DNA from: a virus
Length of the DNA: 36,267 nucleotides
UHGV virus genome: UHGV-0179687
Strand: one strand, 5' to 3'
The notes under the pieces were generated by a model. It made no database searches. It was not told the origin of the DNA and saw only the letters and a program-made list of their open reading frames with translations. Of this stretch, positions 1 to 36,267 are shown piece after piece (the first letter of the stretch is position 1; each line of letters begins with the position of its first letter). The translations under genes were made by a program, and so were the position numbers.

Positions 1-597
1 TTACTCTTCCTCACGCCCCATCTTCAACACCTCATAAAATGTCCCCCGCCCAAGCCCATCCGACGGCAATTCCTGTTCCTGAGCCAGAGCTTTCAGCTTT
101 CGAAGTATCTGGTCAGATGCCGGTTTATCAGACGTCCCATAACGCCCATCAGTCTCCTCAACCAGAAGCTGAACCAGCAGCCAGCAGAGTCGGGCAGTAT
201 TCTCCCGTGCCTTATCGCGTTTATGCATTCCACGCAGGGAAGGTTGTGCTGAAGCAGTGAGATCCGGTAGCGCGTCGTCACCGAGCGTCTTCAGCCACTT
301 GCGTCCACGGCTGTTACGCGACAGTTTCATCACCGCCTTCAGGCTGCGAGCCTTAATTTCTGGCGGCGTGAGTTCGTCATCAATAAGCCGCCAGGCCAGC
401 GCGAACATTTCATCGGCATAGAACATGCGTTTATTCGCCGGGGCACTGACCATGCCAGTGGCTTTGATGGTGCGGTTGATGGCGTCGTGCAGGATACGGT
501 AATTTTCCTGATGTTCTTCCGGCAGGGCATTTGCCGGTTGGGAAGCATCGAGGCCGAGAAGCAGAAGGGCGAGATGCCGCGCTTCCAGCAGTGGCAT
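1..597 (-). CDS. hypothetical protein downstream of the island integrase (start uncertain)
   Basis: Minus-strand ORF ending at stop 1..3. The track ORF 1..894 overlaps the integrase 3' end over its first 99 codons, so the start is placed at the first Met beyond the integrase stop (codon 595..597). No motif recognised. Confidence 0.45.
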   Translation of the reverse strand: MPLLEARHLALLLLGLDASQPANALPEEHQENYRILHDAINRTIKATGMVSAPANKRMFYADEMFALAWRLIDDELTPPEIKARSLKAVMKLSRNSRGRKWLKTLGDDALPDLTASAQPSLRGMHKRDKARENTARLCWLLVQLLVEETDGRYGTSDKPASDQILRKLKALAQEQELPSDGLGRGTFYEVLKMGREEE

Positions 598-643
598 ATC
601 ACATTCCCGTTCAAACAGATTCTGACGAATGGGACTGGTCACA

Positions 644-1890
644 TTATTCTCCTTCCACGATCCGCAGCGGTTCTTCTTCGCCGAGCAAAGTCTGCCGTCT
701 GGCGGCATCAACATAGTTTCCCCACCACTGCATGAGCGGTCGCCTTTGTTCCAGGTAATCGCTGCGGTTGTAGGCTGCTTCGATCTCGTCTTCTTTCTGG
801 TGTGCCAGCGCAGATTCCAGTACTTCACGGGGGAAATGACCTGCCCCCGCCGTTCTGGCGATGCTGCGCATGCTGTGGGCGACCAGTTTACCACCGAACC
901 CCATACGGATAAGCGCGGCGTTCGCGGTCTGCTGGTGCATATGCTCCAGGGGGTTGCGGATGCTGGGGAAAACCCACGGGCGATGGCGGCTGACGGGTTC
1001 CATAACCTGAGAAACGCGCAGCGCTTGTTTGCTAAGCGGCACCGTGTGTGAGCGGTTCATCTTCATAAAGGTATCGGGTATGCGCCATTCCGCTTTTTCA
1101 TATCGATATCGCACCAGCGAGCGCTGACGGCTTCGCCGGGACGTACCCAGGTCAGTAGCTCCCATTCAATCAGACAGCGGGTTTCCTTGCGGATAGAGGC
1201 GTTCTGTAGTGCCAGCATTAGCCTGCCCAGTTCACTGGGGTGAAGGGCGGGCATGTTCTGCTTTTTCGGTTTCTTGAAGCGGGCGACTAGGTTGTCAGCC
1301 GGATTGAACTCGATGAGCTCTTCAGAGATGGCGAAGCGGAAGATTTCATTGAGCCGTGAGATAACCCGGCGCAGCGTTTCGAGGATGCCCTGTTCTTCCA
1401 GCGGTGTGAGGTGTTCCTTGAGCATTTTCGGGCGGATCTCGGTGACGGGCGTATTGCCCAGAGAAGGGAAGACGTGCATCTCCAGCGAACGCCAGACATC
1501 TTTGGCGTGATCTTCGCTAAGGTCGCTGGTCCGTTTCTTCTCTTTGAGCCACTGTTCCGCAACTTTTTCCAGCGTACATTCATTCTGGAGTCGTTGCTCC
1601 TCTGCAACCTGCTCCAGATGGGCCTGCGGGTCGATACCCTGCACGAGTAAACGCCGGTATTGCAACCTGAAATCTCGCGCCATGGCGAGGGTGACAACCG
1701 GGTAGGGGCCAATGCTGATTTTGGTCCGTTTTTTCAGCGCCGGGGGAGTGTATTCGAAGTACCAGATCTTTCTGCCGGATGGCTTAATCAACAACGCCAG
1801 CCCGTCGCCATCGCGCAGCATATACTCAGTCTTCTGCGGTTTGGCGGCAGCGATCTCGGTATTGGTTAGTGATTTCAATACCTTAGGCAT
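644..1890 (-). pseudogene. P4/CP4-57-type tyrosine integrase, disrupted by a 1-nt frameshift
   Basis: Two adjacent minus-strand ORFs (1063..1890 and 644..1165) in different frames. The first carries the N-terminal domain (LTNTEIAAAKPQK...DGDGLALLIKPSGRKIWYFEY). The second carries the catalytic domain (HSMRSIA and AAYNRSDYLEQRRPLMQWW, the His-x-x-Arg and catalytic Tyr region). The frames meet at a T5 run at 1094..1098 (A5 on the coding strand). Confidence 0.8.
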
Positions 1891-2055
1891 GTTTTAGCAC
1901 CACGCTTTTTTAGCCCCACGATACCGTGGTGCTAAACATGGTGCCAAAAGGTCAAAATTCATACAGAGATCATGACCACACATGCAACAAAAAAGCCTGC
2001 AACTCGTTGAAGTTACAGGCTTTTTAAGGTTCATGATGCATCATGAATGAATGTT

Positions 2056-2100
2056 TGGTGGAGCTGGCGGGAGTTGAACCCGCGTCCGAAATTCCTACAT
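2056..2100 (-). other. ssrA: ssrA (tmRNA) 3'-end fragment, attachment-site remnant
   Basis: Reverse complement reads ATGTAGGAATTTCGGACGCGGGTTCAACTCCCGCCAGCTCCACCA, which is the T-arm/acceptor end of enterobacterial tmRNA as I recall it. The match stops at 2100 and is followed by AT-rich unrelated DNA, so the full roughly 360-nt gene is not here. Confidence 0.8.
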
Positions 2101-2216
2101 ACCATTTATATTATAGTGAAAATAGATATTTACGTTTTAAATCAGTTAATTAGTCTTATCTTGTGTTTGGCTGTTTTATGTGATTTTAAAGTTCTGCCGC
2201 CAATTTGTCGCCAGTT

Positions 2217-3437
2217 TTATAGTGTGGGGTTATCTATCTTTTTATATTCAAATAGCATATCAATACTTCTTTCGAGTTTGTAAAAATCAGTTAAGGGGTA
2301 TAGTTTTACAATGTCCTCTTCGAAGTTTTTAATTCCAGACAGTTTTTCTTGACTTTGAAGATATCTCTTTGACATCATCAATTCTATTGAATTTTCTGTT
2401 ATTGATGAATGATCTAATGTTTTTAAGACCTGCCACGAAATAGGTGGCGTAAAGTCGAATAATGTGGAGAGTTTAGGGCAAAAATTTTGTTTTACCGTTT
2501 GTTCATATGTAACTTTGGGTGGAAATACAACATTTATTGAGCGGTTACTTAATCGTGAATTAGGCATTTTTGTAGAGAAGTAAGCTACACCGACAATTTT
2601 CGAGTAAGTTTTTCTACTAATCCATTGCATCAACAAATTAGGGATAATGTACTCTTGTATGAATGTTGCAGAACGATGATTTTTTAAATAATTACATGCA
2701 ATAATTAAAGGCCAGAAAATGAGATAAGAGGCCTTTACTCTATTTGTTTCGGCTAGTTTATTTTCGTCAGCGTAATCTGGTGAGGGATGTAACAAAAGCT
2801 GTGATGCAAAGTTTAAGACTTTATATTCAGTTTCACTGGTAGTAAATGATGAAATAAAAAGCTTGTCAAAATCTGGTTTTTCCATCTCCTGCCAACAAAC
2901 ATAAACCGAAGTGCCAAGATATAAACATGGTAAGCCAGCGACTGAATATCTTTGTGCACTAACAAAATGTCTATTGGAGAATGGAATATGGAAAATTTCA
3001 TCTCTTGACGTTAGAGGATTTTCACTTTTTCTAACTCGAAATAATGGTTTTTTATGATTGCAAATGCTACTGAGTGGAGTAGTGATGCGATGTATGTGTT
3101 GGATTGTTGAGTTATCAGAGAATGTTTTATCAAAGTGGTCATATGCTGACTTGATATCACCTGATAAAAAACTTTCAAGTGATAATGTTATTCCATTTTG
3201 AATGTTCTTAACTTTGCTGATTAATTCATCAAAATTCGGCATCCCATCTTTATTGTTGCTTTTGTATTTAATTATTGTTTTTAGATACTTATCGCAACGT
3301 TCAGTGAAGTCACTTATTATATCTCTATGTACTATAAGTGGAGGGTTTAATTTTGGTTCGGAAATGACTTGTTTTAATAATGAGTTTAAATGGTTCTCAA
3401 ATAACTTTTCTTTATTGACTTTGTTTTTAATATCCAT
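2217..3437 (-). CDS. hypothetical AT-rich cargo protein, 406 aa, with a possible RES-like motif
   Basis: Long minus-strand ORF starting 10 nt after the int stop. Hand-counted G+C about 27-30 % against about 55 % in the structural genes. Segment PFSNRHFVSAQRYSVAGLPCLYLGTSVYVCWQEM resembles the Arg / LY-L / Glu pattern of RES domains; this is weak and from memory. Confidence 0.6.
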   Translation of the reverse strand: MDIKNKVNKEKLFENHLNSLLKQVISEPKLNPPLIVHRDIISDFTERCDKYLKTIIKYKSNNKDGMPNFDELISKVKNIQNGITLSLESFLSGDIKSAYDHFDKTFSDNSTIQHIHRITTPLSSICNHKKPLFRVRKSENPLTSRDEIFHIPFSNRHFVSAQRYSVAGLPCLYLGTSVYVCWQEMEKPDFDKLFISSFTTSETEYKVLNFASQLLLHPSPDYADENKLAETNRVKASYLIFWPLIIACNYLKNHRSATFIQEYIIPNLLMQWISRKTYSKIVGVAYFSTKMPNSRLSNRSINVVFPPKVTYEQTVKQNFCPKLSTLFDFTPPISWQVLKTLDHSSITENSIELMMSKRYLQSQEKLSGIKNFEEDIVKLYPLTDFYKLERSIDMLFEYKKIDNPTL

Positions 3438-3447
3438 TTTGATAAGC

Positions 3448-4467
3448 TCAAATAGTTAACATATGTAAAGGGTTTTTGGTAACGGCATCTTCAAGATGGT
3501 CTGGGGAAAAATGAGAATAAACCATTGTCATTTTTATATCTGTATGACCGAGAATCTCTTTAAGAACAAGTATGTTTCCTCCGTTCATCATAAAATGGCT
3601 GGCAAATGTATGACGTAATACATGGGTGCATTGACCCTCTGGAAGCTCAATACCGGCCCGCTTTACTGCACGCTCAAAGGCTTTTCTGCAGGGCGAGAAT
3701 AACTTCCCTCGGTTTTTAGGAAGTTCGTTGTACAGCTCCTGAGATATCGGCACGGTACGGTTTTTCTTGCCCTTCGTCTTGGTATAAGTGATGCGGTATT
3801 TGGATAACTGATGGCCCTGCAGTTTTTCGGCTTCACTCCACCGTGCGCCGGTAGCTAAGCATATTTTGGTAATCATTAGTAGGCTCGGGCTTTGAGATTC
3901 AGCACATGCAGCCAACAGGCGTTTGATTTCCTCCGTGGAAAGAAAGGCTAGTTCACCTTCAGCAATTTTAAATGTTGGAAGCCCGGCAAGAGGGTTGGGG
4001 GCTGACCAGTGGCCCAGCTTTTTCAGTGTACCAAAAACCGATGATAGGTTGCGTTGTTCAAGGTTTACCGTGCGGGGCTTAACGGGCGACATCAGCGTGC
4101 CATCTTCATTTCGCACTTCACCTTTTAGCCGTGCTTCGCGGTATTTCGTAAAGTCACCGGCAGTCAGCTCTGAAGCGATGGGATCGCCCAGACCATTACA
4201 GATAATTCCAAGTTTCGCCATGAGTCGCTTGGGGTCTGCGAGTGTCTGACCATACAGGGAATACCACAGCTCAATTAATTCTGATAGGCGTCGCCGATCA
4301 TCCTTTTCACCCAACCACGGTTTTTTATTCACTTCTTCCATTGTGAAGCTTTCAAACGCAATGGCTTCGCCTTTCGTGGCAAATTGCTTACGCACGCGCT
4401 TGCCATTGCGTCCATTGGGATAGCACTCACACAACCATTTTCCGTTCGGCTGTTTTCTGATGGTCAT
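3448..4467 (-). CDS. int: P2-type tyrosine integrase
   Basis: 339 aa. N-terminal RNGKRVRKQF, then TGARWSEA, HVLRHTFASHFMMNGG and LGHTDIKMTMVYSHF (Arg, His-x-x-Arg, catalytic Tyr), typical of P2 Int. Confidence 0.9.
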   Translation of the reverse strand: MTIRKQPNGKWLCECYPNGRNGKRVRKQFATKGEAIAFESFTMEEVNKKPWLGEKDDRRRLSELIELWYSLYGQTLADPKRLMAKLGIICNGLGDPIASELTAGDFTKYREARLKGEVRNEDGTLMSPVKPRTVNLEQRNLSSVFGTLKKLGHWSAPNPLAGLPTFKIAEGELAFLSTEEIKRLLAACAESQSPSLLMITKICLATGARWSEAEKLQGHQLSKYRITYTKTKGKKNRTVPISQELYNELPKNRGKLFSPCRKAFERAVKRAGIELPEGQCTHVLRHTFASHFMMNGGNILVLKEILGHTDIKMTMVYSHFSPDHLEDAVTKNPLHMLTI

Positions 4468-4468
4468 A

Positions 4469-5101
4469 TCAAAGGCTCTTAATGATTTTCAGTGCGCGGC
4501 CTACTACCTCAATGTCATCCAGGCCGCACTCAAACGATGAATCATCCTGATGCACTACTAATTTGTTTCCCGGGAGTCGAGTCAATTTAACAATGCTTTT
4601 TATCCCGTCGATATCGACTAACCACATACCATTTACTAGTGGTGTTTGGTTGCGATCTATTAAATAAGAATCACCAGAAGTAGTCACCAGCAGTAGGTTG
4701 CTTGAGTCTGAGGGGAGTATGCTGCTATCAATGATTGCTTTTCCAGCATCGATCAATAAACCACCGTTGAGAGTCGCCTTGTCAATTTCAGGAGATACTA
4801 GTTCAGAAAGAGGTATAACCTTGCTGGAGTTCACGGAGTTGATATTTTTTTGGGGTTCAATGTTTGAACCTGGCTCCCCCTGTCCGGTGGTTAGCCACAG
4901 TAAAGAAACTCCTGTTTCCAAGGCGCACTGAATCACCCACTCTGCAGGAAAACTATCTCTTAAGTATCTGTTTGCCATGGTACTTTTTGATGCGCCCAAG
5001 TGATCGCAAAGTTGCTGTCTGGACTTGAAATCATAGGCTGCCATTAGTCTATGGATAGCCTCTCTTCCCCCTGTATTCTCTCCAGCCTTTACCTGTATCA
5101 T
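4469..5101 (-). CDS. cI: 186-type CI immunity repressor
   Basis: 210 aa, directly upstream of int on the same strand and divergent from the Apl-like/cII genes. N-terminal HTH-like region. Size and position match phage 186 cI. Confidence 0.7.
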   Translation of the reverse strand: MIQVKAGENTGGREAIHRLMAAYDFKSRQQLCDHLGASKSTMANRYLRDSFPAEWVIQCALETGVSLLWLTTGQGEPGSNIEPQKNINSVNSSKVIPLSELVSPEIDKATLNGGLLIDAGKAIIDSSILPSDSSNLLLVTTSGDSYLIDRNQTPLVNGMWLVDIDGIKSIVKLTRLPGNKLVVHQDDSSFECGLDDIEVVGRALKIIKSL

Positions 5102-5113
5102 TTTTTAATCCTA

Positions 5114-5142
5114 TTGACGTATCAAATATTGGATCGTAGTAT
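5114..5142 (+). promoter_or_regulatory. candidate early lytic promoter (pR-like)
   Basis: TTGACG (5114..5119), 17-nt spacer, TAGTAT (5137..5142), in the cI/apl divergent intergenic region. Two near-identical 15-mers, atcaaatattggatc (5121..5135) and gtcaaatattgaatc (5151..5165), overlap or follow it and may be operators. Confidence 0.5.
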
Positions 5143-5220
5143 CTCTATGTGTCAAATATTGAATCAAGTAAAACGAGATAAAACGACGTAAACCAAACCT
5201 TAATCGGGAGATACTGCACT

Positions 5221-7046: not shown

Positions 7047-7900
7047 GCACCATCCTGAAATGGGCGGGTAATAAAACCGCCATTATGTCCGAACTGAAAA
7101 AACACCTTCCTGCTGGCCCGCGACTGGTTGAACCTTTCGCGGGTTCTTGTGCTGTGATGATGGAGACGGATTACCCCAGCTATTTGGTTGCGGATATTAA
7201 TCCTGATTTAATCAACCTCTATAAAAAGGTTGCCGCTGATTGTGAATCGTTTATATTTCGCGCCAGAGTTTTATTTGAGATCGCAAACAGGGAGGTGGCT
7301 TATTACAACATAAGGCAGGAGTTTAATTACTCCACTGAAATTACTGATTTCATGAAAGCGGTATATTTCCTGTATCTCAATCGTCACGGTTACCGTGGTT
7401 TATGTCGCTATAACAAGAGCGGGCATTTCAACATTCCCTACGGTAATTATAAAAATCCGTATTTCCCTGAAAAAGAACTTCGCACATTTGCAGAAAAAGC
7501 CCAGCGAGCAACGTTTGTCTGCGCCAGCTTTGATGAAACGCTGGCGATGTTGAAGGCGGGGGATGTGGTGTATTGCGATCCGCCGTATGACGGTACGTTT
7601 TCCGGCTATCACACTGATGGTTTCACTGAAGATGACCAGTATCACCTGGCATCCGTTCTTGAACATCGGTCATCAGAAGGACATCCGGTCATTGTTTCTA
7701 ACAGTGACACATCCCTGATCCGTTCGCTGTATCGCAATTTTACTCACCACTACATCAAGGCAAAACGCAGCATCGGCGTAGCAGCTGGTGAGAGTAAATC
7801 TGCAACAGAAATCATTGCTGTTTCCGGGCCGCGCTGCTGGGTGGGATTTGATCCTTCGCGTGGCGTGGATAGTTCTGCCGTGTACGGAGTGCGTGCATGA
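7043..7900 (+). CDS. dam: DNA adenine methyltransferase (Dam-like)
   Basis: 285 aa with the DPPY catalytic motif (VYCDPPYDG) and the N-terminal PFAGSCAV AdoMet-binding-like segment. Confidence 0.85.
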
Positions 7901-10311
7901 GCCATGCTGATATGAACAATTGCAGCGGCTTTAACGAGGCCGCCGCAGCATTCTCATGGAACAGCCCGAAAAAGGCTATTAACCCTTATCTGGACCCGGC
8001 GGAAGTTGCGCCGGTTTCTGCGCTTTCAAACCTGATCACTCTGTACGCTGCCGATAACGAGCAGGAACAACTGCGCCGCGAGGCACTGAGTGATCAGGTC
8101 TGGGAGCGTTATTTCTTTAATGCATCCCGTGATCCTGTCCAACGCGAAATGGAGCAGGATAAGCTCATTAGCCGGGCAAAGCTGGCGCATGAGCAGCAGC
8201 GTTTTAATCCGGACATGATCATACTGGCGGACGTTAACGCCCAGCCTTCCCATATCAGCAAGCCGCTGATGCAACGTATTGAATACTTCAGCAGCCTGGG
8301 CAGGCCAAAGGCTTATTCCCGCTATTTGCGTGAGACGATTAAGCCATGTCTGGAACGACTGGAGCATGTACGCGACAGTCAGCTATCCACTTCTTTTCGC
8401 TTTATGGCAAGCCATGAAGGGCTGGACGGCCTGCTGATCTTGCCTGAATTGAGTCAGGATCAGGTGAAACGCCTGTCTACTCTTGTCGCTGCGCATATGA
8501 GTATGTGTCTTGATGCCGCTTGTGGTGATTTGTACGCCACCGATGATGTTAAGCCAGAAGAAATCCGCAAGACATGGGAAAAGGTGGCAGCAGAAACCCT
8601 GCGACTGGATGTCATACCGCCTGCGTTTGAGCAACTCCGCCGGAAAAGAAACCGCCGTAAACCCGTGCCCTATGAACTCATTCCGGGTTCGCTGGCGCGT
8701 ATGTTGTGCGCCGATTGGTGGTACCGTAAATTATGGAAGATGCGTTGCGAATGGCGGGAAGAGCAGTTGCGTGCTGTTTGTCTGGTCAGCAAAAAAGCAT
8801 CTCCCTATGTCAGCTATGAAGCCGTGATGCATAAACGTGAGCAGCGCCGTAAGTCGCTGGAGTTTTTCCGTTCTCATGAACTGGTGAACGAAGACGGCGA
8901 CACGCTGGACATGGAGGATGTGGTAAACGCCAGCAGCACCAACCCTGCACATCGCCGCAATGAGATGATGGCCTGTGTTAAAGGTCTGGAGCTTATCGCG
9001 GAAATGCGCGGTGACTGCGCCGTTTTTTACACCATCACCTGTCCGTCACGTTTCCATTCCACGCTAAATAACGGCAGGCCCAACCCGACCTGGACAAACG
9101 CGACGGTAAGACAAAGCAGTAATTATCTGGTCGGCATGTTTGCTGCATTTCGTAAGGCGATGCACAAAGCCGGGTTGCGCTGGTATGGCGTGCGGGTGGC
9201 TGAGCCGCATCATGACGGCACAGTTCACTGGCACCTGTTGTGTTTCATGCGCAAAAAAGACCGCCGCGCCATTACTGCATTGTTGCGTAAGTTTGCTATC
9301 CGTGAAGACCGCGAGGAGCTGGGTAATAACACGGGGCCACGCTTTAAGTCTGAGCTGATAAACCCGTGCAAAGGAACGCCGACTAGCTACATCGCGAAAT
9401 ACATCAGTAAGAACATTGACGGGCGTGGTCTGGCTGGCGAGATCAGCAAGGAAACGGGTAAATCTCTGCGTGATAACGCTGAATACGTTAATGCCTGGGC
9501 GTCTCTGCATCGTGTTCAGCAATTCCGCTTCTTTGGCATTCCGGGACGTCAGGCTTACCGTGAACTGCGATTGCTGGCTGGTCAGGTGGCAAGGCAACAG
9601 GGTGACAAAAAAGCAGGTGCGCCGGTACTGGATAACCCGCGCCTTGATGCCATTCTGGCTGCAGCTGATGCTGGTTGTTTTGCCACCTACATCATGAAGC
9701 AGGGCGGCGTACTGGTTCCCCGTAAATATCACCTCATCAGAACCGCTTATGAAATCAACGAAGAGCCGACCGCCTATGGCGATCACGGCATTCGTATTTA
9801 TGGCATCTGGTCACCCATTGCAGAGGGCAAAATCTGCACTCATGCAGTGAAGTGGAAAATGGTTCGTAAGGCCGTTGACGTTCAGGAGGCGGCAGCCGAC
9901 CAGGGCGCTTGCGCCCCTTGGACTCGTGGCAATAACTGTCCCCTTGCTGAAAATTTGAACCAACAAGGGAAAGACAAATCAGCTGATGGGGATACCAGAA
10001 CGGAGATCACCCGCATGGATGACAAGGAGTTGCACGATTACCTGCACAGTATGAGCAAAAAAGAGCGCCGGGAACTGGCAGCAAGGTTACGCCTGGTGAA
10101 ACCGAAATGGCGTAAAGACTACAAACAGCGAATTACAGAGCATCAGCGTCAGCAGCTCGTCTATGAACTGAAGTCCAGAGGATTTGATGGCAGCGAGAAA
10201 GAGGTCGATCTGCTCCTTCGCGGTGGCAGTATTCCGTCAGGAGCAGGCCTGCGTATCTTCTATCGGAACCAGCGTTTGCAGGAAGATGATAAGTGGCGGA
10301 ACCTGTATTAA
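7897..10311 (+). CDS. A: replication initiation endonuclease (P2 gpA-like)
   Basis: 804 aa. His-hydrophobic-His motif (TVHWHLLCF) and a downstream YIAKYISK tyrosine segment typical of rolling-circle initiators. Sits where P2 gene A does. Confidence 0.9.
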
Positions 10312-10464: not shown

Positions 10465-10653
10465 ATGCAGGACTATTTTTTGGAGTCTTTGAAGCTCCAG
10501 CGCATTGATTTTTTTCTTAAGCTTGTAGCGGCTAGTGAGTGTAGTGATGAAGAGAAGGGGCTGGCTTTGCAATGGGTTTCTGAACTGACAGATGAACTCA
10601 TGGCAAAAATCAGAACCCACGAATACAACCGCTCAATGGATGTCATCAGCTGA
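10465..10653 (+). CDS. small hypothetical protein downstream of the LexA box
   Basis: 62-aa ORF with RBS aggagg. No motif recognised. Confidence 0.5.
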   Translation: MQDYFLESLKLQRIDFFLKLVAASECSDEEKGLALQWVSELTDELMAKIRTHEYNRSMDVIS

Positions 10654-10663
10654 GGTGACTTTT

Positions 10664-10897
10664 ATGCGCATTGAAATAATGATCGATAAAGAGCAGAAGA
10701 TTAGCCAGTCTACCCTGGACGCCCTTGAATCCGAGCTTTACCGCAATCTGCGCCCCCTGTATCCCAAGACGGCGATCCGCATTCGCAAAGGCAGTGCCAA
10801 CGGTATCGAGTTGACCGGCTTAAAACTTGATGAGGATAAGCAGCGGGTAATGGAAATTATGCAGCAGGTCTGGGAAGACGACAGCTGGCTGCATTAG
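10664..10897 (+). CDS. dinI: DinI-family protein
   Basis: 77 aa, MRIEIMIDK...DALESEL...KQRVMEIMQQVWEDDSWLH, matching DinI conserved positions (MRIE start, DAL-x-EL, KQR-x-x-EI-x-Q-x-WE...W). Confidence 0.8.
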   Translation: MRIEIMIDKEQKISQSTLDALESELYRNLRPLYPKTAIRIRKGSANGIELTGLKLDEDKQRVMEIMQQVWEDDSWLH

Positions 10898-11183: not shown

Positions 11184-11402
11184 ATGTCAAGTATCGCCGC
11201 ATTGAAGCTGGGTAATCCAGTTGAACGTTTGGCACGGGTTCTGAAAGAGAACCAGGACAAGCTCAATCTGAGTAAAGATGGTTTTGTGTCCGTAGATTTG
11301 TCCAACGAAGAAGCTATGAAAGCCATCCGAGATCAGATGGATAAGCTTGAAGGCATCAAAACGAGCACTGTTAAAGCAAAATATTATTACAGAACCCGAT
11401 AA
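11184..11402 (+). CDS. small soluble hypothetical protein (first gene of accessory pair)
   Basis: 72 aa, strong RBS aaggaggg. Stop overlaps the next start (TAATG). Confidence 0.6.
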   Translation: MSSIAALKLGNPVERLARVLKENQDKLNLSKDGFVSVDLSNEEAMKAIRDQMDKLEGIKTSTVKAKYYYRTR

Positions 11403-12244
11403 TGGCAACATTACTTTTAGCAGTGATTTTGGTTAGTGGTTTTATATATGTAAACCTATCACTTTCAACACGTTATAGATATAAGCGTTCCAATGGCTGG
11501 GACGCTTATTTTTTTGTGGCTGCATGGGGAATTGTCTTTTTCCTCGCTGGCGGCTTCCTTACCTTCGCTCTTAACATCAGCGGTGGGTTTCGCTGGTTTT
11601 CTAATGCGCTGAATCTGACTCCAGACAGCTTTAACGGGATGTTATCCACCACAACCGATAAACCGCAGCGCATCAATGAAATTAAGCAAATCGCGTGGGT
11701 TGTGATTTCAATAGTTCTCGCGGCGCTGTTCGGTTGGCTAAACAAACGCCGTACTTCAAAGGGGGATCGCCGTTGGGATGCACTGGCAAAGGCAGTGGGA
11801 AACAATGCTTTTGAATCGCTGCTCATGGAAGCATCAGCTCGCCAGTTTCCTATCATTGCTACACTTTCATCACGCAAAATCTATGTAGGGCTGGTGACTT
11901 GCCCTGCGTTGGAAAATGGATTGTCGGAACACCTTGAAATTCTCCCCTTGCTGAGCGGATATCGTGATAAAGACGACCTAACGATAAATATCACGACAAA
12001 CTATCATCAGCACTATCTTGATAGCGGTGTTATCAATGGGATGTCGCGCCTGAATATCCAGGATTTCCGTGTGCTTCTCCCTAAAGATGAAGTTGAAACC
12101 ATCTCGTTTTTTGATACTGAAACGTATAACAAATTTAAAGAAAACGAAGCGCGTGACCGGAAAGACTGCCGCAAGTTGGGTGGTAAAAAGCCATCCGCAC
12201 GCAGGAGAAAGACTGCTGGCGACGCAGAGCAGGGTAGTGCATGA
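11402..12244 (+). CDS. membrane protein with three N-terminal hydrophobic helices and a C-terminal soluble domain
   Basis: 280 aa. Hydrophobic segments LLLAVILVSGFIYVNLSL, YFFVAAWGIVFFLAGGFLTFAL and IAWVVISIVLAALFGWL, then about 170 soluble residues and a basic tail. Confidence 0.65.
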   Translation: MATLLLAVILVSGFIYVNLSLSTRYRYKRSNGWDAYFFVAAWGIVFFLAGGFLTFALNISGGFRWFSNALNLTPDSFNGMLSTTTDKPQRINEIKQIAWVVISIVLAALFGWLNKRRTSKGDRRWDALAKAVGNNAFESLLMEASARQFPIIATLSSRKIYVGLVTCPALENGLSEHLEILPLLSGYRDKDDLTINITTNYHQHYLDSGVINGMSRLNIQDFRVLLPKDEVETISFFDTETYNKFKENEARDRKDCRKLGGKKPSARRRKTAGDAEQGSA

Positions 12245-12459: not shown

Positions 12460-13893
12460 ATGATCCAGCCAAAAGTTTTTATATCCTATAGTTGGTCAAG
12501 TAAAACTCATCAGCAACATATCAAAGATATGGCTGAACGATTGGCGGCAGATGGAGTTGAAACTGTCATAGATATTTATGACTTGAAAGAAGGGGATGAT
12601 AAAAATTATTACATGGAAAGAATGGTTCAAGATGAAACGGTTACGCATGTTTTAGTCATTTGTGATAAAAAATACTCAGAAAAAGCCGATTTAAGAAAAG
12701 ATGGTGTCGGTGTTGAGTCGATGATAATTTCCCAGGAAATATATTCATCCGTGTCGCAGTCCAAATTTATACCATTAATATTTGAGTACAAAGATAATGG
12801 AGAGCCGTATACTCCAATCTTTCTGAAGTCTAGAATCTATATTGATTTTTCAACGCCAGAAAAAGAAAATGATAATTGGGAGCGTTTAATCAGGTTGCTT
12901 TATGGAAAACCAGAATTTACTAAGCCACCATTAGGTAAGCCTCCGGTTTATTTAGAGCAAGACACGTCAAAACCGACGTATGAAATTCATGCAAAATTTC
13001 AAACTTTAAAATCAGCTGTCTTAAATCAAAAGCAGACATTAAAGGATTGCAGAAGGCAATTTTTAGAGGTGTGCCGAAATTATTGTATCTCACTACAAGT
13101 CGTAACAAACCCAACTACTGAAGATTTTGCAGCGGAAGTTTTGCAAATTCATAAAGAGCTTATTGCCGTTAGGGATGCCATTACAGACTGGGTTTTACTT
13201 GAGGGTGATACGCAGGGCGAAGACTTTTCCAAAGCACTATTACAGTTTATGGAAGTAATGTTAGCGATTAGAAATCGTCCGAAAAATGTAAATTCATATA
13301 ATGAAATATGGTTTTTGCCCCATCAGATTTTTGCGTATGAAACGTTTTTATATATTTTGGCGGCTTTAATAAAAATTGAAGCTTTCCAGCATGTACATAC
13401 ATTACTGCATACATCTTATTTGCTACCCGATCATATAACCAGTCCGGGAATGGAGTTTGCTAATTACAGTGAGTTATATTTAAGCTCTGATTACCTTCAA
13501 AGTAAATTGTCCCCTGAAAACTATCGACTGTATTCCCCTGTTGCTGAGTTAGTAAAGCAAAGTGCAACTAGAGATGATGTGTCTTTCGATGATTTGAAAC
13601 AAGCTGATCTTGTTGCTCTTATGATATCCTTCATTAATCCCGGTATTTTTTGGTACCCGCAAATGTTGTTGTATTCCGGGCACTATGAGAAATATCCTCT
13701 ATTTACAAGAGCAATACAGCATAGAGGATTCAAGAGTATTGCAGTTATTACCGGAATCGATGACAGTAAACTTTTGGCTCAAAAGCTGACAGAGGGTGAG
13801 GCCCAGCGAAATACTAATAACTGGTATCATTTCGGTTTTAATAGAGACTTTCTCAATAAAATGAATGTTAGTCGTCTAGATAGTATTGAATGA
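12460..13893 (+). CDS. TIR-like domain protein with an unrecognised C-terminal domain
   Basis: 477 aa. N-terminus KVFISYSWSS...VLVICDKKYSEK...GVGVESMI fits a TIR/TIR-like fold signature (FISYS strand, later acidic residue). RBS aagggagg. Hand-counted G+C about 27-35 %. Confidence 0.7.
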   Translation: MIQPKVFISYSWSSKTHQQHIKDMAERLAADGVETVIDIYDLKEGDDKNYYMERMVQDETVTHVLVICDKKYSEKADLRKDGVGVESMIISQEIYSSVSQSKFIPLIFEYKDNGEPYTPIFLKSRIYIDFSTPEKENDNWERLIRLLYGKPEFTKPPLGKPPVYLEQDTSKPTYEIHAKFQTLKSAVLNQKQTLKDCRRQFLEVCRNYCISLQVVTNPTTEDFAAEVLQIHKELIAVRDAITDWVLLEGDTQGEDFSKALLQFMEVMLAIRNRPKNVNSYNEIWFLPHQIFAYETFLYILAALIKIEAFQHVHTLLHTSYLLPDHITSPGMEFANYSELYLSSDYLQSKLSPENYRLYSPVAELVKQSATRDDVSFDDLKQADLVALMISFINPGIFWYPQMLLYSGHYEKYPLFTRAIQHRGFKSIAVITGIDDSKLLAQKLTEGEAQRNTNNWYHFGFNRDFLNKMNVSRLDSIE

Positions 13894-33202: not shown

Positions 33203-33684
33203 TGATGGTGCTGGGATTATACGTGTTTATGCTGCGCACCGTGCCGTATCAGGAGCTGCAGTATCAGCGCAGCTGGCGACATGCGGCTAACAGCCGGGTT
33301 AACCGACGCCCGTCAACGCAGTTTCTGGGACCGGATAACGACATGCTGACGCTTTCTGGCGTTCTTATGCCGGAAATAACAGGCGGCAGGCTGTCGTTGC
33401 TGGCACTGGAGCAGATGGCAGAACAGGGGAAAGCATGGCCCCTGATTGAAGGCAGCGGCACGATTTACGGCATGTATGTGATTGAGGGACTGAATCAGAC
33501 TAAAACGGAGTTTTTCCGCGACGGTATGCCGCGCAGGATTGAGTTCACCCTGTCGCTAAAACGCGTGGATGAATCCCTGTCCGATATGTTCGGTGATCTC
33601 AGTGCGCAACTGAATAATCTGCAGGGAACGGAAACATCTGCCTTAAGCGATATCAGTAAAACGGTGGGAGGGCTGCTGTCGTGA
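33199..33684 (+). CDS. U: tail protein U
   Basis: 161 aa, overlapping the T stop. Confidence 0.85.
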   Translation: MMMVLGLYVFMLRTVPYQELQYQRSWRHAANSRVNRRPSTQFLGPDNDMLTLSGVLMPEITGGRLSLLALEQMAEQGKAWPLIEGSGTIYGMYVIEGLNQTKTEFFRDGMPRRIEFTLSLKRVDESLSDMFGDLSAQLNNLQGTETSALSDISKTVGGLLS

Positions 33685-34781
33685 ATTTCAGCTCTGAACT
33701 GCTTAACAAAGGCAACAAAACTCCGGCATTCAGCATCAGTATTGAAGGCAGGGATATCACCACTGTGCTGGACAACCGCCTGATGGGGCTGACGCTGACG
33801 GATAACCGGGGATTTGAAGCGGACCAGCTTGATCTGGAGCTGGACGACGCCGATGGAAAAATCGTGCTGCCGCGCCGTGGTGCGGTCATTACGCTGGCGC
33901 TGGGCTGGAAGGGGCAGCCGCTTTTCCCGAAAGGGGCATTCACGGTGGACGAGATTGAACACACTGGCGCACCGGACCGCCTGACTATCCGGGCGCGAAG
34001 TGCTGATTTTCGGGAAACCCTGAATACCCGCCGTGAAAAATCGTGGCATAACACCACCATCGGGGAAGTGGTGAAGGAAATAGCCGCGCGGCACAAGCTG
34101 AAGATGGCACTGGGTAAAGAGCTGTCGGATAAGCCCGTGGAGCATATAGACCAGACTAATGAGAGTGACGGCAGTTTTCTGATGCGACTGGCGCGACAGT
34201 ACGGTGCCATCGCGTCGGTGAAAAATGGCAATCTGTTATTCATCCGGCAGGGGCAGGGCAAAAGCGCCACTGGTAAACCACTGCCAGTGATCACTATCAC
34301 ACGCAAGGACGGCGACAGTCACCGCTTTACCCTGGCAGATCGCGGAGCCTACACGGGCGTAATTGCCAGCTGGTTGCATACCCGTGAACCTGCGAAGAAA
34401 GAAAGCACCACGGTGAAGCGTAAGCGCAGAACTAAGAAGCAGAAGAAAGAGCCGGAAGCGAAGCAGGGCGATTACCTGGTGGGTACGGATGAAAACGTGC
34501 TGGTACTTAATCGCACTTATGCCAACCGGAGCAACGCCGAACGAGCGGCGAAAATGCAGTGGGAACGCCTGCAACGCGGCGTTGCGTCATTCTCGCTACA
34601 ACTGGCGGAAGGGCGGGCAGATCTCTACACGGAAATGCCAGTGAAAGTCAGTGGCTTTAAACAGCCGATAGATGATGCGGAATGGACTATTACCACCCTG
34701 ACGCATACTGTCAGCCCGGATAACGGTTTTACGACCAGTCTGGAGCTTGAAGTGAAGATTGATGATTTCGAAATGGAATGA
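33681..34781 (+). CDS. D: tail protein D
   Basis: 366 aa, overlapping the U stop. Last late structural gene. Confidence 0.85.
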   Translation: MNFSSELLNKGNKTPAFSISIEGRDITTVLDNRLMGLTLTDNRGFEADQLDLELDDADGKIVLPRRGAVITLALGWKGQPLFPKGAFTVDEIEHTGAPDRLTIRARSADFRETLNTRREKSWHNTTIGEVVKEIAARHKLKMALGKELSDKPVEHIDQTNESDGSFLMRLARQYGAIASVKNGNLLFIRQGQGKSATGKPLPVITITRKDGDSHRFTLADRGAYTGVIASWLHTREPAKKESTTVKRKRRTKKQKKEPEAKQGDYLVGTDENVLVLNRTYANRSNAERAAKMQWERLQRGVASFSLQLAEGRADLYTEMPVKVSGFKQPIDDAEWTITTLTHTVSPDNGFTTSLELEVKIDDFEME

Positions 34782-35351: not shown

Positions 35352-35525
35352 ATGGATACAAACGAACTTGGCTTAGTTAAGGCGCGTGTTGAACTGATCA
35401 CCGCTATGCTCAAATGCGCAACCGCGTTTGTTGGCTTAGTTGGTGCGGTTTACGCCGTTCTTAACATGGCCTTCAACTACAACAATTTAACTCATGACAA
35501 TAGAAGTTCAAAGGTGGGAAGATAA
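35352..35525 (+). CDS. small hydrophobic protein upstream of the reverse transcriptase
   Basis: 57 aa from the ATG at 35352, with ggagg 8 nt upstream. One long hydrophobic segment (ATAFVGLVGAVYAVLNMAF). Its 3' end overlaps the RT start by 32 nt. Coding status is uncertain. Confidence 0.4.
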   Translation: MDTNELGLVKARVELITAMLKCATAFVGLVGAVYAVLNMAFNYNNLTHDNRSSKVGR

Positions 35526-36267
35526 ATTTGAGATTAAGCCCGGGGTTTGGGTTTATGTCCCAAGCGTTGAGGCACGTAAAGTCGGAGGGAAGATACTTCA
35601 GGCTGTCAGAAACAAGTGGATTCCGCCACTCTATTTTTACCATCTAAGAACTGGTGGGCATCTTAAAGCTGCCAGATTACACTTAAAAAGTGATTTTTTT
35701 GCCGTTGTTGATATTAAACAATTTTTTCAGTCAACGAGCCGTAGTCGTATCACCCGTGATCTAAAGAGCTACTTCACCTATTCTCAAGCGCGGGAAATCT
35801 CAACATTTTCAACTGTAAGAAACTTGTCCCATAGTCCACATAAGCATGTCCTCCCTTTTGGTTTTGTTCAATCTCCAATACTTGCAACCCTCTGCTTAGA
35901 TAAAAGTTATTTTGGTAGCTTACTACGCCGATTGAACAAACATCATGATCTCAAGCTAAGTGTGTTTATGGATGATGTGATCATCTCGTCAAACGATTTG
36001 GCCCAATTACAAGCGGCTTACGACGAAGCACTAGTGGCAATGCGTAAATCTGGTTATCAAGCCAACATGAGTAAAACTCAGGCACCATCGTCAAAGATTA
36101 GCGTGTTTAATTTAACTTTGAGTAAGGGAGTTATGAAAGTCACATCTCAGAAAATGAGTGACTTCCTGATTGATTTCTATTCAAGCAATTATGAGCCGCA
36201 CAGAATAGGGGTCAAAAACTACGTCGAAGCTGTTAATCCAGGGCAAGCGAAACTCTTTAAGTTGTAA
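35494..36267 (+). CDS. compact reverse transcriptase
   Basis: 257 aa with RT motifs in order: FFAVVDIKQFFQST (motif A Asp), LPFGFVQSPILATLCL (motif B'), LSVFMDDVIISS (motif C, x-M-D-D), ...MSKTQ (motif D). Hand-counted G+C about 40 %. Confidence 0.75.
   Translation: MTIEVQRWEDKFEIKPGVWVYVPSVEARKVGGKILQAVRNKWIPPLYFYHLRTGGHLKAARLHLKSDFFAVVDIKQFFQSTSRSRITRDLKSYFTYSQAREISTFSTVRNLSHSPHKHVLPFGFVQSPILATLCLDKSYFGSLLRRLNKHHDLKLSVFMDDVIISSNDLAQLQAAYDEALVAMRKSGYQANMSKTQAPSSKISVFNLTLSKGVMKVTSQKMSDFLIDFYSSNYEPHRIGVKNYVEAVNPGQAKLFKL

Follow-up and report, generated by a model that had tools for sequence, protein, structure and literature searches.

The closest described systems to the locus considered here are the RES-Xre type II toxin-antitoxin modules (PF08808, COG5654), whose toxins MbcT (Rv1989c), Res of Pseudomonas putida and Photorhabdus, and NatT of Pseudomonas aeruginosa are phosphorylases of nicotinamide adenine dinucleotide (NAD+), and the Sphingobium pair in which the 160-amino-acid (aa) toxin ParT, which ADP-ribosylates Prs, is matched by the antitoxin ParS. 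RES toxins are widespread. The gene studied here, a compact one-gene candidate for a part in defence, is a 406-aa open reading frame (ORF) in a 36,267-nucleotide stretch of viral DNA (virus genome UHGV-0179687; "the window" denotes the whole of this stretch), where it lies beside the integrase gene (int) of a prophage. Whilst the canonical toxins of the MbcT, Res and NatT type comprise 150-250 aa, the window protein is put at more than twice the canonical size by extra parts, namely a bundle of five helices at the N terminus, an insert of variable sequence and an extension at the C terminus, and its gene is not accompanied by one for an Xre/DUF2384 antitoxin. It is likewise larger than ParT and solitary, the similarity of its family to the solved RES toxins lies below HMMER detection, and it occupies a prophage cargo slot, in contrast to NatRT, which is reported to have no association with phages in any case (PMC11535050).

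The protein is very probably a highly divergent RES-domain member with the RES fold, and it is probably an active NAD+-using enzyme. By a modest measure we favour the reading that it is a stand-alone RES enzyme, carried as a one-gene "moron" in the int-attP slot, which would act as an autoinhibited, lysogen-expressed, NAD+-consuming effector of abortive infection.

Assignment to the RES family

A preliminary description of the locus had pointed to a loose resemblance to RES motifs around the peptide PFSNRHFVSAQRYSVAGLPCLYLGTSVYVCWQEM, which corresponds to aa 152-185 (window 2883-2984), and had proposed profile and structure searches. Single-sequence scans were silent, with no match to the Pfam RES model even at E ≤ 1 (curated cutoff 23.2 bits); the evidence comes instead from the protein's relatives and from its fold. 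The modelled protein has the three-dimensional fold of the solved RES toxins, the best structural matches being MbcT and NatT, and Pfam RES is the sole family to recur, being hit by 15 relatives in a set of 26 (E ≤ 10) and by 24 in a set of 52 (E ≤ 0.01, the best value being 6.3e-6), so that the suspected motif is supported. The SPbeta protein YopC reaches 22.4 bits, just below the same cutoff. A weak sequence signal is to be expected here, since the solved RES toxins themselves barely find one another (MbcT against ParT, E 0.11). Deposited annotations agree with the assignment, namely those of Escherichia phage Cartapus CARTA_33 ("putative RES protein, NAD+ binding domain") and RefSeq YopC ("RES domain-containing") and one UniRef name. 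Family profiles of 26 and 52 members searched against all PDB sequences found no RES toxin; what they returned, all at the N-terminal region and all short of significance, were CesA-like chaperones and designed helical bundles. Nor did a search of the viral structures in BFVD produce a significant match.

Twelve residues (R136, H150, R163, S165, G168, P170, Y173, W182, E184, E262, N302 and P306) are invariant in 52 sequences of 24-42% identity, and four more (R134, R156, S177, S288) reach 90% conservation or above in the same set. The spacing of R163, Y173 and E184, at 10 and 11 residues, is close to that of R47, Y58 and E69 in MbcT (11 and 11; sequence from PDB 6fkg). Alignment of the family profile with hhalign placed window aa 169-212 on MbcT 54-106, with a pairwise E of 0.0033 for MbcT alone and 0.0019 for a 30-sequence MbcT-clade profile, in a register that sets Y173 on Y58, S177 on S62, C181 on C66 and E184 on E69; in a motif alignment R163 then meets R47 with a one-residue gap that ParT and VPA0770 also show. 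The region-1 arginine R27 of MbcT probably has its counterpart, to judge by position, in the strand LFRVRKS (R134/R136), and on a reading of the motifs S288 and N302 may be equated with the last-strand Ser/Asn of that protein. The conserved polar set of the RES family (region-1 Arg, RES Arg, Tyr, Glu and last-strand Ser/Asn) is thus present. In MbcT, R27, R47 and Y58 are essential, and the named RES motif is R47-E69-S126 (PMC6436930).

The protein could be a ParT-like ADP-ribosyltransferase that modifies a specific host or phage target, in defence or in lysogenic conversion. We consider this unlikely, the best structural matches, MbcT and NatT, being NAD+ phosphorylases; it is nevertheless a chemical variant compatible with the stand-alone effector reading, and sequence cannot separate the two chemistries.

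Outside the core, conservation falls away. Identity to relatives within the core is 0.76 and 0.66 for close and 0.50 and 0.38 for distant comparisons, against 0.11-0.33 for aa 1-90; the most variable parts of the protein are these first 90 residues and the inserts (0.22-0.33 and 0.06-0.14). The N-terminal bundle evolves fast except for the motif FLSGDIKSAYD, with G93 invariant, and yields generic helical-bundle matches only, both in the structure search and in the profile searches of PDB sequences. We propose that it is a regulatory or sensor domain.

Conservation, operon and attachment site

Close homologues number 223, all of about 395-425 aa and all from Enterobacterales. A profile search of 1.84 billion representatives returned 2,686 clusters (50% identity) with E ≤ 1e-3, of which 957 reach E ≤ 1e-30; 360-400 aa is the usual length among the 2,686, and the match usually takes in the core as well as the N-terminal region. 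The protein also matches PHROG 7835, a group of unknown function, at E 2.8e-145, and with so many full-length homologues the ORF is a genuine gene, not one that arose by chance. The exact protein occurs in 145 assembly-index blocks, always in the context cI-int-X, and the contigs that carry it show at least two distinct chromosomal neighbourhoods past the attachment (att) side, so the gene travels with the phage. At the DNA level, relatives are detectable in just 40 of 5,426 complete E. coli genomes, and the window allele in none of the 5,426. The 99%-identical cluster of the protein bears an E. coli label, and the island to the left of the prophage (window 1-1900) has about 89% identity to its best matches among these genomes; the host may be a divergent Escherichia lineage.

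The ORF runs from ATG to TAA (stop codon at 2217-2219) and its coordinates, strand and position 10 nt past the int stop are as first described: the int stop TGA occupies 3450..3448 and the ATG lies at 3437 on the same strand. Its AT-richness also stands as a contrast with its neighbours, the G+C content being 31.8% (27.1% at third codon positions) where int has 47.1%, cI 44.4% and the window as a whole 51.4%, although the earlier hand count of 27-30% was slightly low. This composition, the lack of an obvious Shine-Dalgarno sequence in the 10-nt spacer ahead of the ORF, and the small number of E. coli genomes with relatives would all suit an inactive, decaying or H-NS-silenced passenger. Such a passenger is nonetheless highly improbable. 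The listed homologues are all full length, where degenerate copies had been envisaged as an argument against a function, and the invariance of catalytic-type residues across phyla, taken with these full-length homologues and with the exact protein on many contigs, indicates purifying selection.

On the minus strand, a single sigma-70-like match lies upstream of cI, int and the RES-like gene, and no promoter-like or terminator-like site was found between cI-int and the RES-like ORF. The gene for the repressor CI is the first of a presumed lysogenic operon, cI-int-RES. Table 1 collects the features of this region and of the protein.

Table 1. Features at the RES-like locus, in window coordinates
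Feature	Position	Strand	Details
RES-like gene, solitary, divergent, ADP-ribosyltransferase (ART) fold	2217..3437	-	406 aa
N-terminal five-helix bundle, aa 1-125	3063..3437	-	predicted helices 3-26, 40-61, 69-91, 95-106, 109-117
RES/ART-fold catalytic core, aa 129-345	2403..3053	-	variable insert aa 201-236
Motif segment, aa 152-185	2883..2984	-	R163, Y173, S177, C181, E184 = MbcT R47, Y58, S62, C66, E69
C-terminal helical extension, aa 346-406	2220..2402	-	with conserved LYPLTDFYKLE motif
Spacer (10 nt) from int stop to ORF start	3438..3447	-	reads GCTTATCAAA on minus strand
Prophage tyrosine integrase (int), directly upstream	3448..4467	-	Pfam Int_N 3e-29, Phage_integrase 6e-24
186-type CI repressor, directly upstream of int	4469..5101	-	Pfam Phage_CI_repr 5e-31, Phage_CI_C 1.5e-28
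Sigma-70-like promoter match upstream of cI, candidate lysogenic promoter	5097..5125	-	consensus match only
Replaceable cargo cassette, RES-like ORF and last few int codons	2214..3461	.	blastn against L003, L004, L006
AT-rich phage arm of attachment site	2099..2213	.	kept in sister prophages with any cargo
ssrA (tmRNA) 3'-end copy, att core or remnant	2056..2098	-	...GGAATTTCGGACGCGGGTTCAACTCCCGCCAGCTCCACCA on minus strand

Comparison with related prophages at the same position, also suggested at the outset, revealed a variable slot with unrelated genes between conserved flanks. Sister E. coli prophages match window 2049-2213 at 79-85% identity and 3461-5200 at 85-94%, and are wholly different in between, homology ending at 2213 and resuming at 3461-3467 within the last codons of int. 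In place of the single ORF of the window cassette they carry a 510-aa protein of unknown function, a 331-aa HNH endonuclease, a 327-aa protein of unknown function, or a 397-aa member of the same family. The C-terminal tails of some relatives fall at the same junction: homologues P0011, P0064, P0074 and P0078 end in GG(K/T)LAAE or GDKMAAEL, and the att arm after the window stop (2180-2216, minus strand; ..ACTGGCGACAAATTGGCGGCAGAACTT..) codes for TGDKLAAEL in another frame. The gene of some phages thus seems to read through into the conserved att arm, which places the cassette junction exactly at the gene end.

The att remnant of the preliminary description proved to be real, window 2056-2098 being the reverse complement of the 3' end of transfer-messenger RNA (tmRNA). 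It is separated from the ORF by about 117 nt of AT-rich sequence (minus strand). Rfam reports a partial tmRNA at 2056-2145 (E 2.3e-10), ARAGORN finds no complete tmRNA in the window, and part of 2030-2216 is matched in all 5,426 complete E. coli genomes. To the left of the remnant lies a P4-type integrase gene (644-1890, minus strand) that is split into 1063..1890 and 644..1165 and is apparently frameshifted; on two contigs with an identical RES protein (L167 and L169) this integrase is intact, with a length of 397-412 aa, and the next gene codes for a SIR2-STAND protein of 835 aa. From the cI-int-RES layout, the ssrA 3' copy and the P4-type integrase to its left, the element is therefore a 186/Fels-2-like (Peduoviridae) prophage at ssrA, the displaced ssrA 3' copy is an att remnant, and an older island lies beyond it.

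Gene neighbours were surveyed in 160 loci, 80 of them viral (IMG/VR) and 80 genomic; the latter, in which genes were called and neighbours clustered, come from Enterobacterales, Aeromonas, Bacteroidota, Acidobacteriota, Bacillota, Planctomycetota and further groups. In 79 of the 80 viral loci int is directly upstream of the family member, at a median gap of about 20 nt, and in 48 of the 80 an exact 29-nt ssrA core follows 135-146 nt downstream of the gene. Such constancy beside int and attP, whilst the protein diverges to 45% identity, is what might be expected if the gene served the phage life cycle, as an accessory of integration or excision or as a counter-defence or host-takeover factor at the establishment of lysogeny. 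In phage 186, cI-int transcripts are also produced while lysogeny is being established. We regard such a role as very unlikely. Sister prophages whose int and cI are 85-94% identical carry unrelated genes instead, including the HNH nuclease, the gene being therefore dispensable for integration, and outside prophages, too, members are widespread and adjoin known defence systems; nor is a part in recombination known for the RES fold. The narrower proposal of an integration accessory was rejected outright, since sister prophages with a near-identical int carry other genes in its place.

Gene neighbourhoods and a possible role in defence

Neither half of the survey yielded the partner antitoxin or immunity gene for which the preliminary description had advised looking. 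Over the 80 genomic loci there is no universal partner, the only neighbour clusters being int/cI in Enterobacterales and one seven-locus operon in Bacteroidota, and no partner is conserved in the 80 viral loci. An upstream gene for an Xre antitoxin with a helix-turn-helix (HTH) is absent, its place being taken by int in the window as in 79 of the viral loci. Homologues of the SPbeta proteins YopB and YopD were sought beside other family members and none was found, the small ORFs upstream of family members are unrelated to one another, and no antisense or embedded ORF is kept open in diverged relatives. A RES-Xre type II toxin-antitoxin module was consequently ruled out, by the lack of an adjacent antitoxin and by a size far above that of a RES domain alone.

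In a looser form of this idea the prophage would be stabilised by an addiction or toxin-antitoxin module to which the protein contributes the toxin, and CI, an RNA or a host factor the antitoxin. Three observations would fit: the characterised RES proteins are all type II toxins (PMC6436930, PMC11535050), the gene is in one presumed operon with the HTH repressor CI, and yopC of SPbeta is immediately preceded by yopB, an HTH gene that codes for 75 aa. Against it stand the lack of a conserved partner and of YopB homologues beside other members, the one-gene cassette with no conserved embedded ORF, and the many contexts in which the family is found without CI. Gene order argues in the same direction, since in Klebsiella sp. 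R390 (locus L012, 4323-7180) the family gene lies between cI and int, in the order cI-X-int, and the linkage to int is thus not fixed; the cI-int interval is a hotspot position reported for K139-like Vibrio phages (PMC9122126). Taken together, we judge addiction decidedly unlikely.

For a role of the RES-like protein in defence the chances appear to us about even. In its favour, the slot holds an HNH nuclease or other genes in sister prophages, and a preprint of 2026 counts the stretch between int and att among the minor hotspots for defence genes in P2-like phages, with 3% of their systems (bioRxiv 10.64898/2026.02.27.708500). Distant relatives adjoin Septu PtuA/PtuB, Avs2 (E 0) and DISARM DrmD (E 9e-290), while one is part of a Type III restriction-modification operon and has PDC-S39 as its neighbour. 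The RES-like protein itself has no match in PADLOC-DB v2.0.0 at E ≤ 10.

Individual loci add detail to these contexts. The restriction-modification locus, from a Sulfurimonas metagenome-assembled genome (L016, 3088-10905), comprises, in this order, a Mod methylase, the RES-like gene, PDC-S39 (DUF7380/DUF4209) and a Res endonuclease, with overlapping gene ends. Seven Bacteroidota loci (L036, L041, L046, L049, L050, L052 and L053) share the order GHKL-type ATPase (about 507 aa), 220-aa protein, RES-like gene, the last two overlapping by 4-14 nt in most of them; neither Pfam nor PADLOC gives a match for the 220-aa protein. An HNH-type PtuB-like gene (about 293 aa) precedes the ATPase/220-aa pair in five of the seven, and in L041, the sole locus of the clade scanned with PADLOC, the HNH gene matches PtuB of Septu and a PtuA-like ATPase upstream matches PtuA. 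Possibly, then, several genes form one system here, with the RES protein as its effector.

The window prophage carries other candidate defence genes. A 477-aa bSEFIR protein (12460..13893, plus strand; PADLOC E 1e-102), a second NAD+-linked candidate, is encoded in the classical P2 hotspot between the replication gene A (7897..10311) and the portal gene, and the plus-strand ORFs upstream of it (11402-12244, 280 aa; 10592-10897, 101 aa) have no PADLOC match. On the other side of attP, beyond gene D (33681-34781, assigned by position only), a retron-type reverse transcriptase gene (35494..36267, plus strand) runs off the right end of the window, its best PADLOC match being RT_VI (E 7e-18); at this position Cartapus has a BRCT-like "putative exonuclease". 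The attachment site seems to be flanked by cargo slots on both sides.

Were the protein indeed a stand-alone RES effector, its gene would follow cI and int as the third on a transcript made in the lysogen from the promoter of cI, and the product would be made in an autoinhibited form, for a constitutively produced RES enzyme that has no antitoxin must be restrained by its own polypeptide. The fast-evolving bundle at the N terminus, the variable inserts, or both, might hold the enzyme off or sense a cue of infection. Infection by another phage would then switch the enzyme on and NAD+ would be consumed, either through phosphorolysis that yields ADP-ribose-1''-phosphate, the reaction of MbcT, Res and NatT, or through hydrolysis. 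Metabolism would stop and the infection would be aborted, with protection of sister lysogens and of the resident prophage.

Several points weigh against this proposal. Autoinhibition and N-terminal sensing are pure inference, and the searchable literature holds no enzymatic, toxicity, expression or phage-challenge data for any family member, with no characterisation found in that on RES in phage defence or on YopC; nor has any RES protein so far been tied to immunity (Santi et al. 2024, PMC11535050). The defence neighbours come from four hand-picked loci, all four of which had them, and from the one seven-locus clade. The position of the gene is fixed in the phage lineage down to 45% identity, so that it could serve the phage itself and not host defence. 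As regards the enzyme, the protein falls below every Pfam, NCBIfam and PADLOC threshold in single-sequence scans, the hhalign match to the MbcT clade is weak and short (probability 10-14%), and the structure model is least confident at aa 140-170, the stretch with R163, which we liken to the flexible MbcT loop that bears R47.

Comparison with known systems

The nearest counterparts in described phages are int-adjacent homologues in the Salmonella phages RE-2010 and SopEPhi and in Escherichia phage Cartapus, at 45% identity over 98% of the length; in Cartapus the layout is cI-int-X-att, as here, followed by the late-gene end of the genome. YopC of SPbeta is also a homologue (30% identity over 66%, E 2e-32), although it differs from the window protein in its 442-aa length and its phage context, lying after the small HTH gene yopB. 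The P2 genes old, tin and fun/Z resemble the window gene in being prophage-borne, AT-rich, swappable single genes between conserved phage genes, whereas their products belong to other protein families and the slot differs from the classical hotspots, gpA-portal and the tail region.

Effectors that deplete NAD+ are a common theme. In the way that it might work, the protein is closest to SIR2-type DSR1/DSR2 and to TIR proteins such as bSEFIR, for which a like logic can be proposed: a sensor region joined to an NAD+-consuming domain, without an antitoxin, in defence hotspots. This likeness is one of working only, as the catalytic folds are unrelated (ART/RES against SIR2 or TIR) and no defence phenotype has been reported for a RES protein (PMC11535050). 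According to the same 2024 study, NAD+-targeting defences use only TIR and SIR2. Tentatively, and as something possible short of probable, the family of about 2,700 clusters from many phyla may represent a first RES-domain immune system, an abortive-infection module of one polypeptide in which a hypervariable N-terminal bundle directly senses a phage component and frees an NAD+ phosphorylase, and with which temperate P2/186-like phages, bearing it in their lysogenic operon, exclude competitors. If so, RES/ART would be a third independent NAD+-depleting immune effector beside TIR and SIR2, and the long-unexplained RES family would gain a physiological role. Should a defence function hold, the gene would provide a new effector class together with antitoxin-free control of a RES toxin, and would extend the catalogue of defences in the int-att slot of P2-like phages, which has been little studied. 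With respect to what has been described before, the RES hint in a few database annotations and the int-att slot as a minor hotspot are already known; new is a large, solitary and extended RES family without an antitoxin, sited in the presumed lysogenic operon of a prophage and associated with defence systems.

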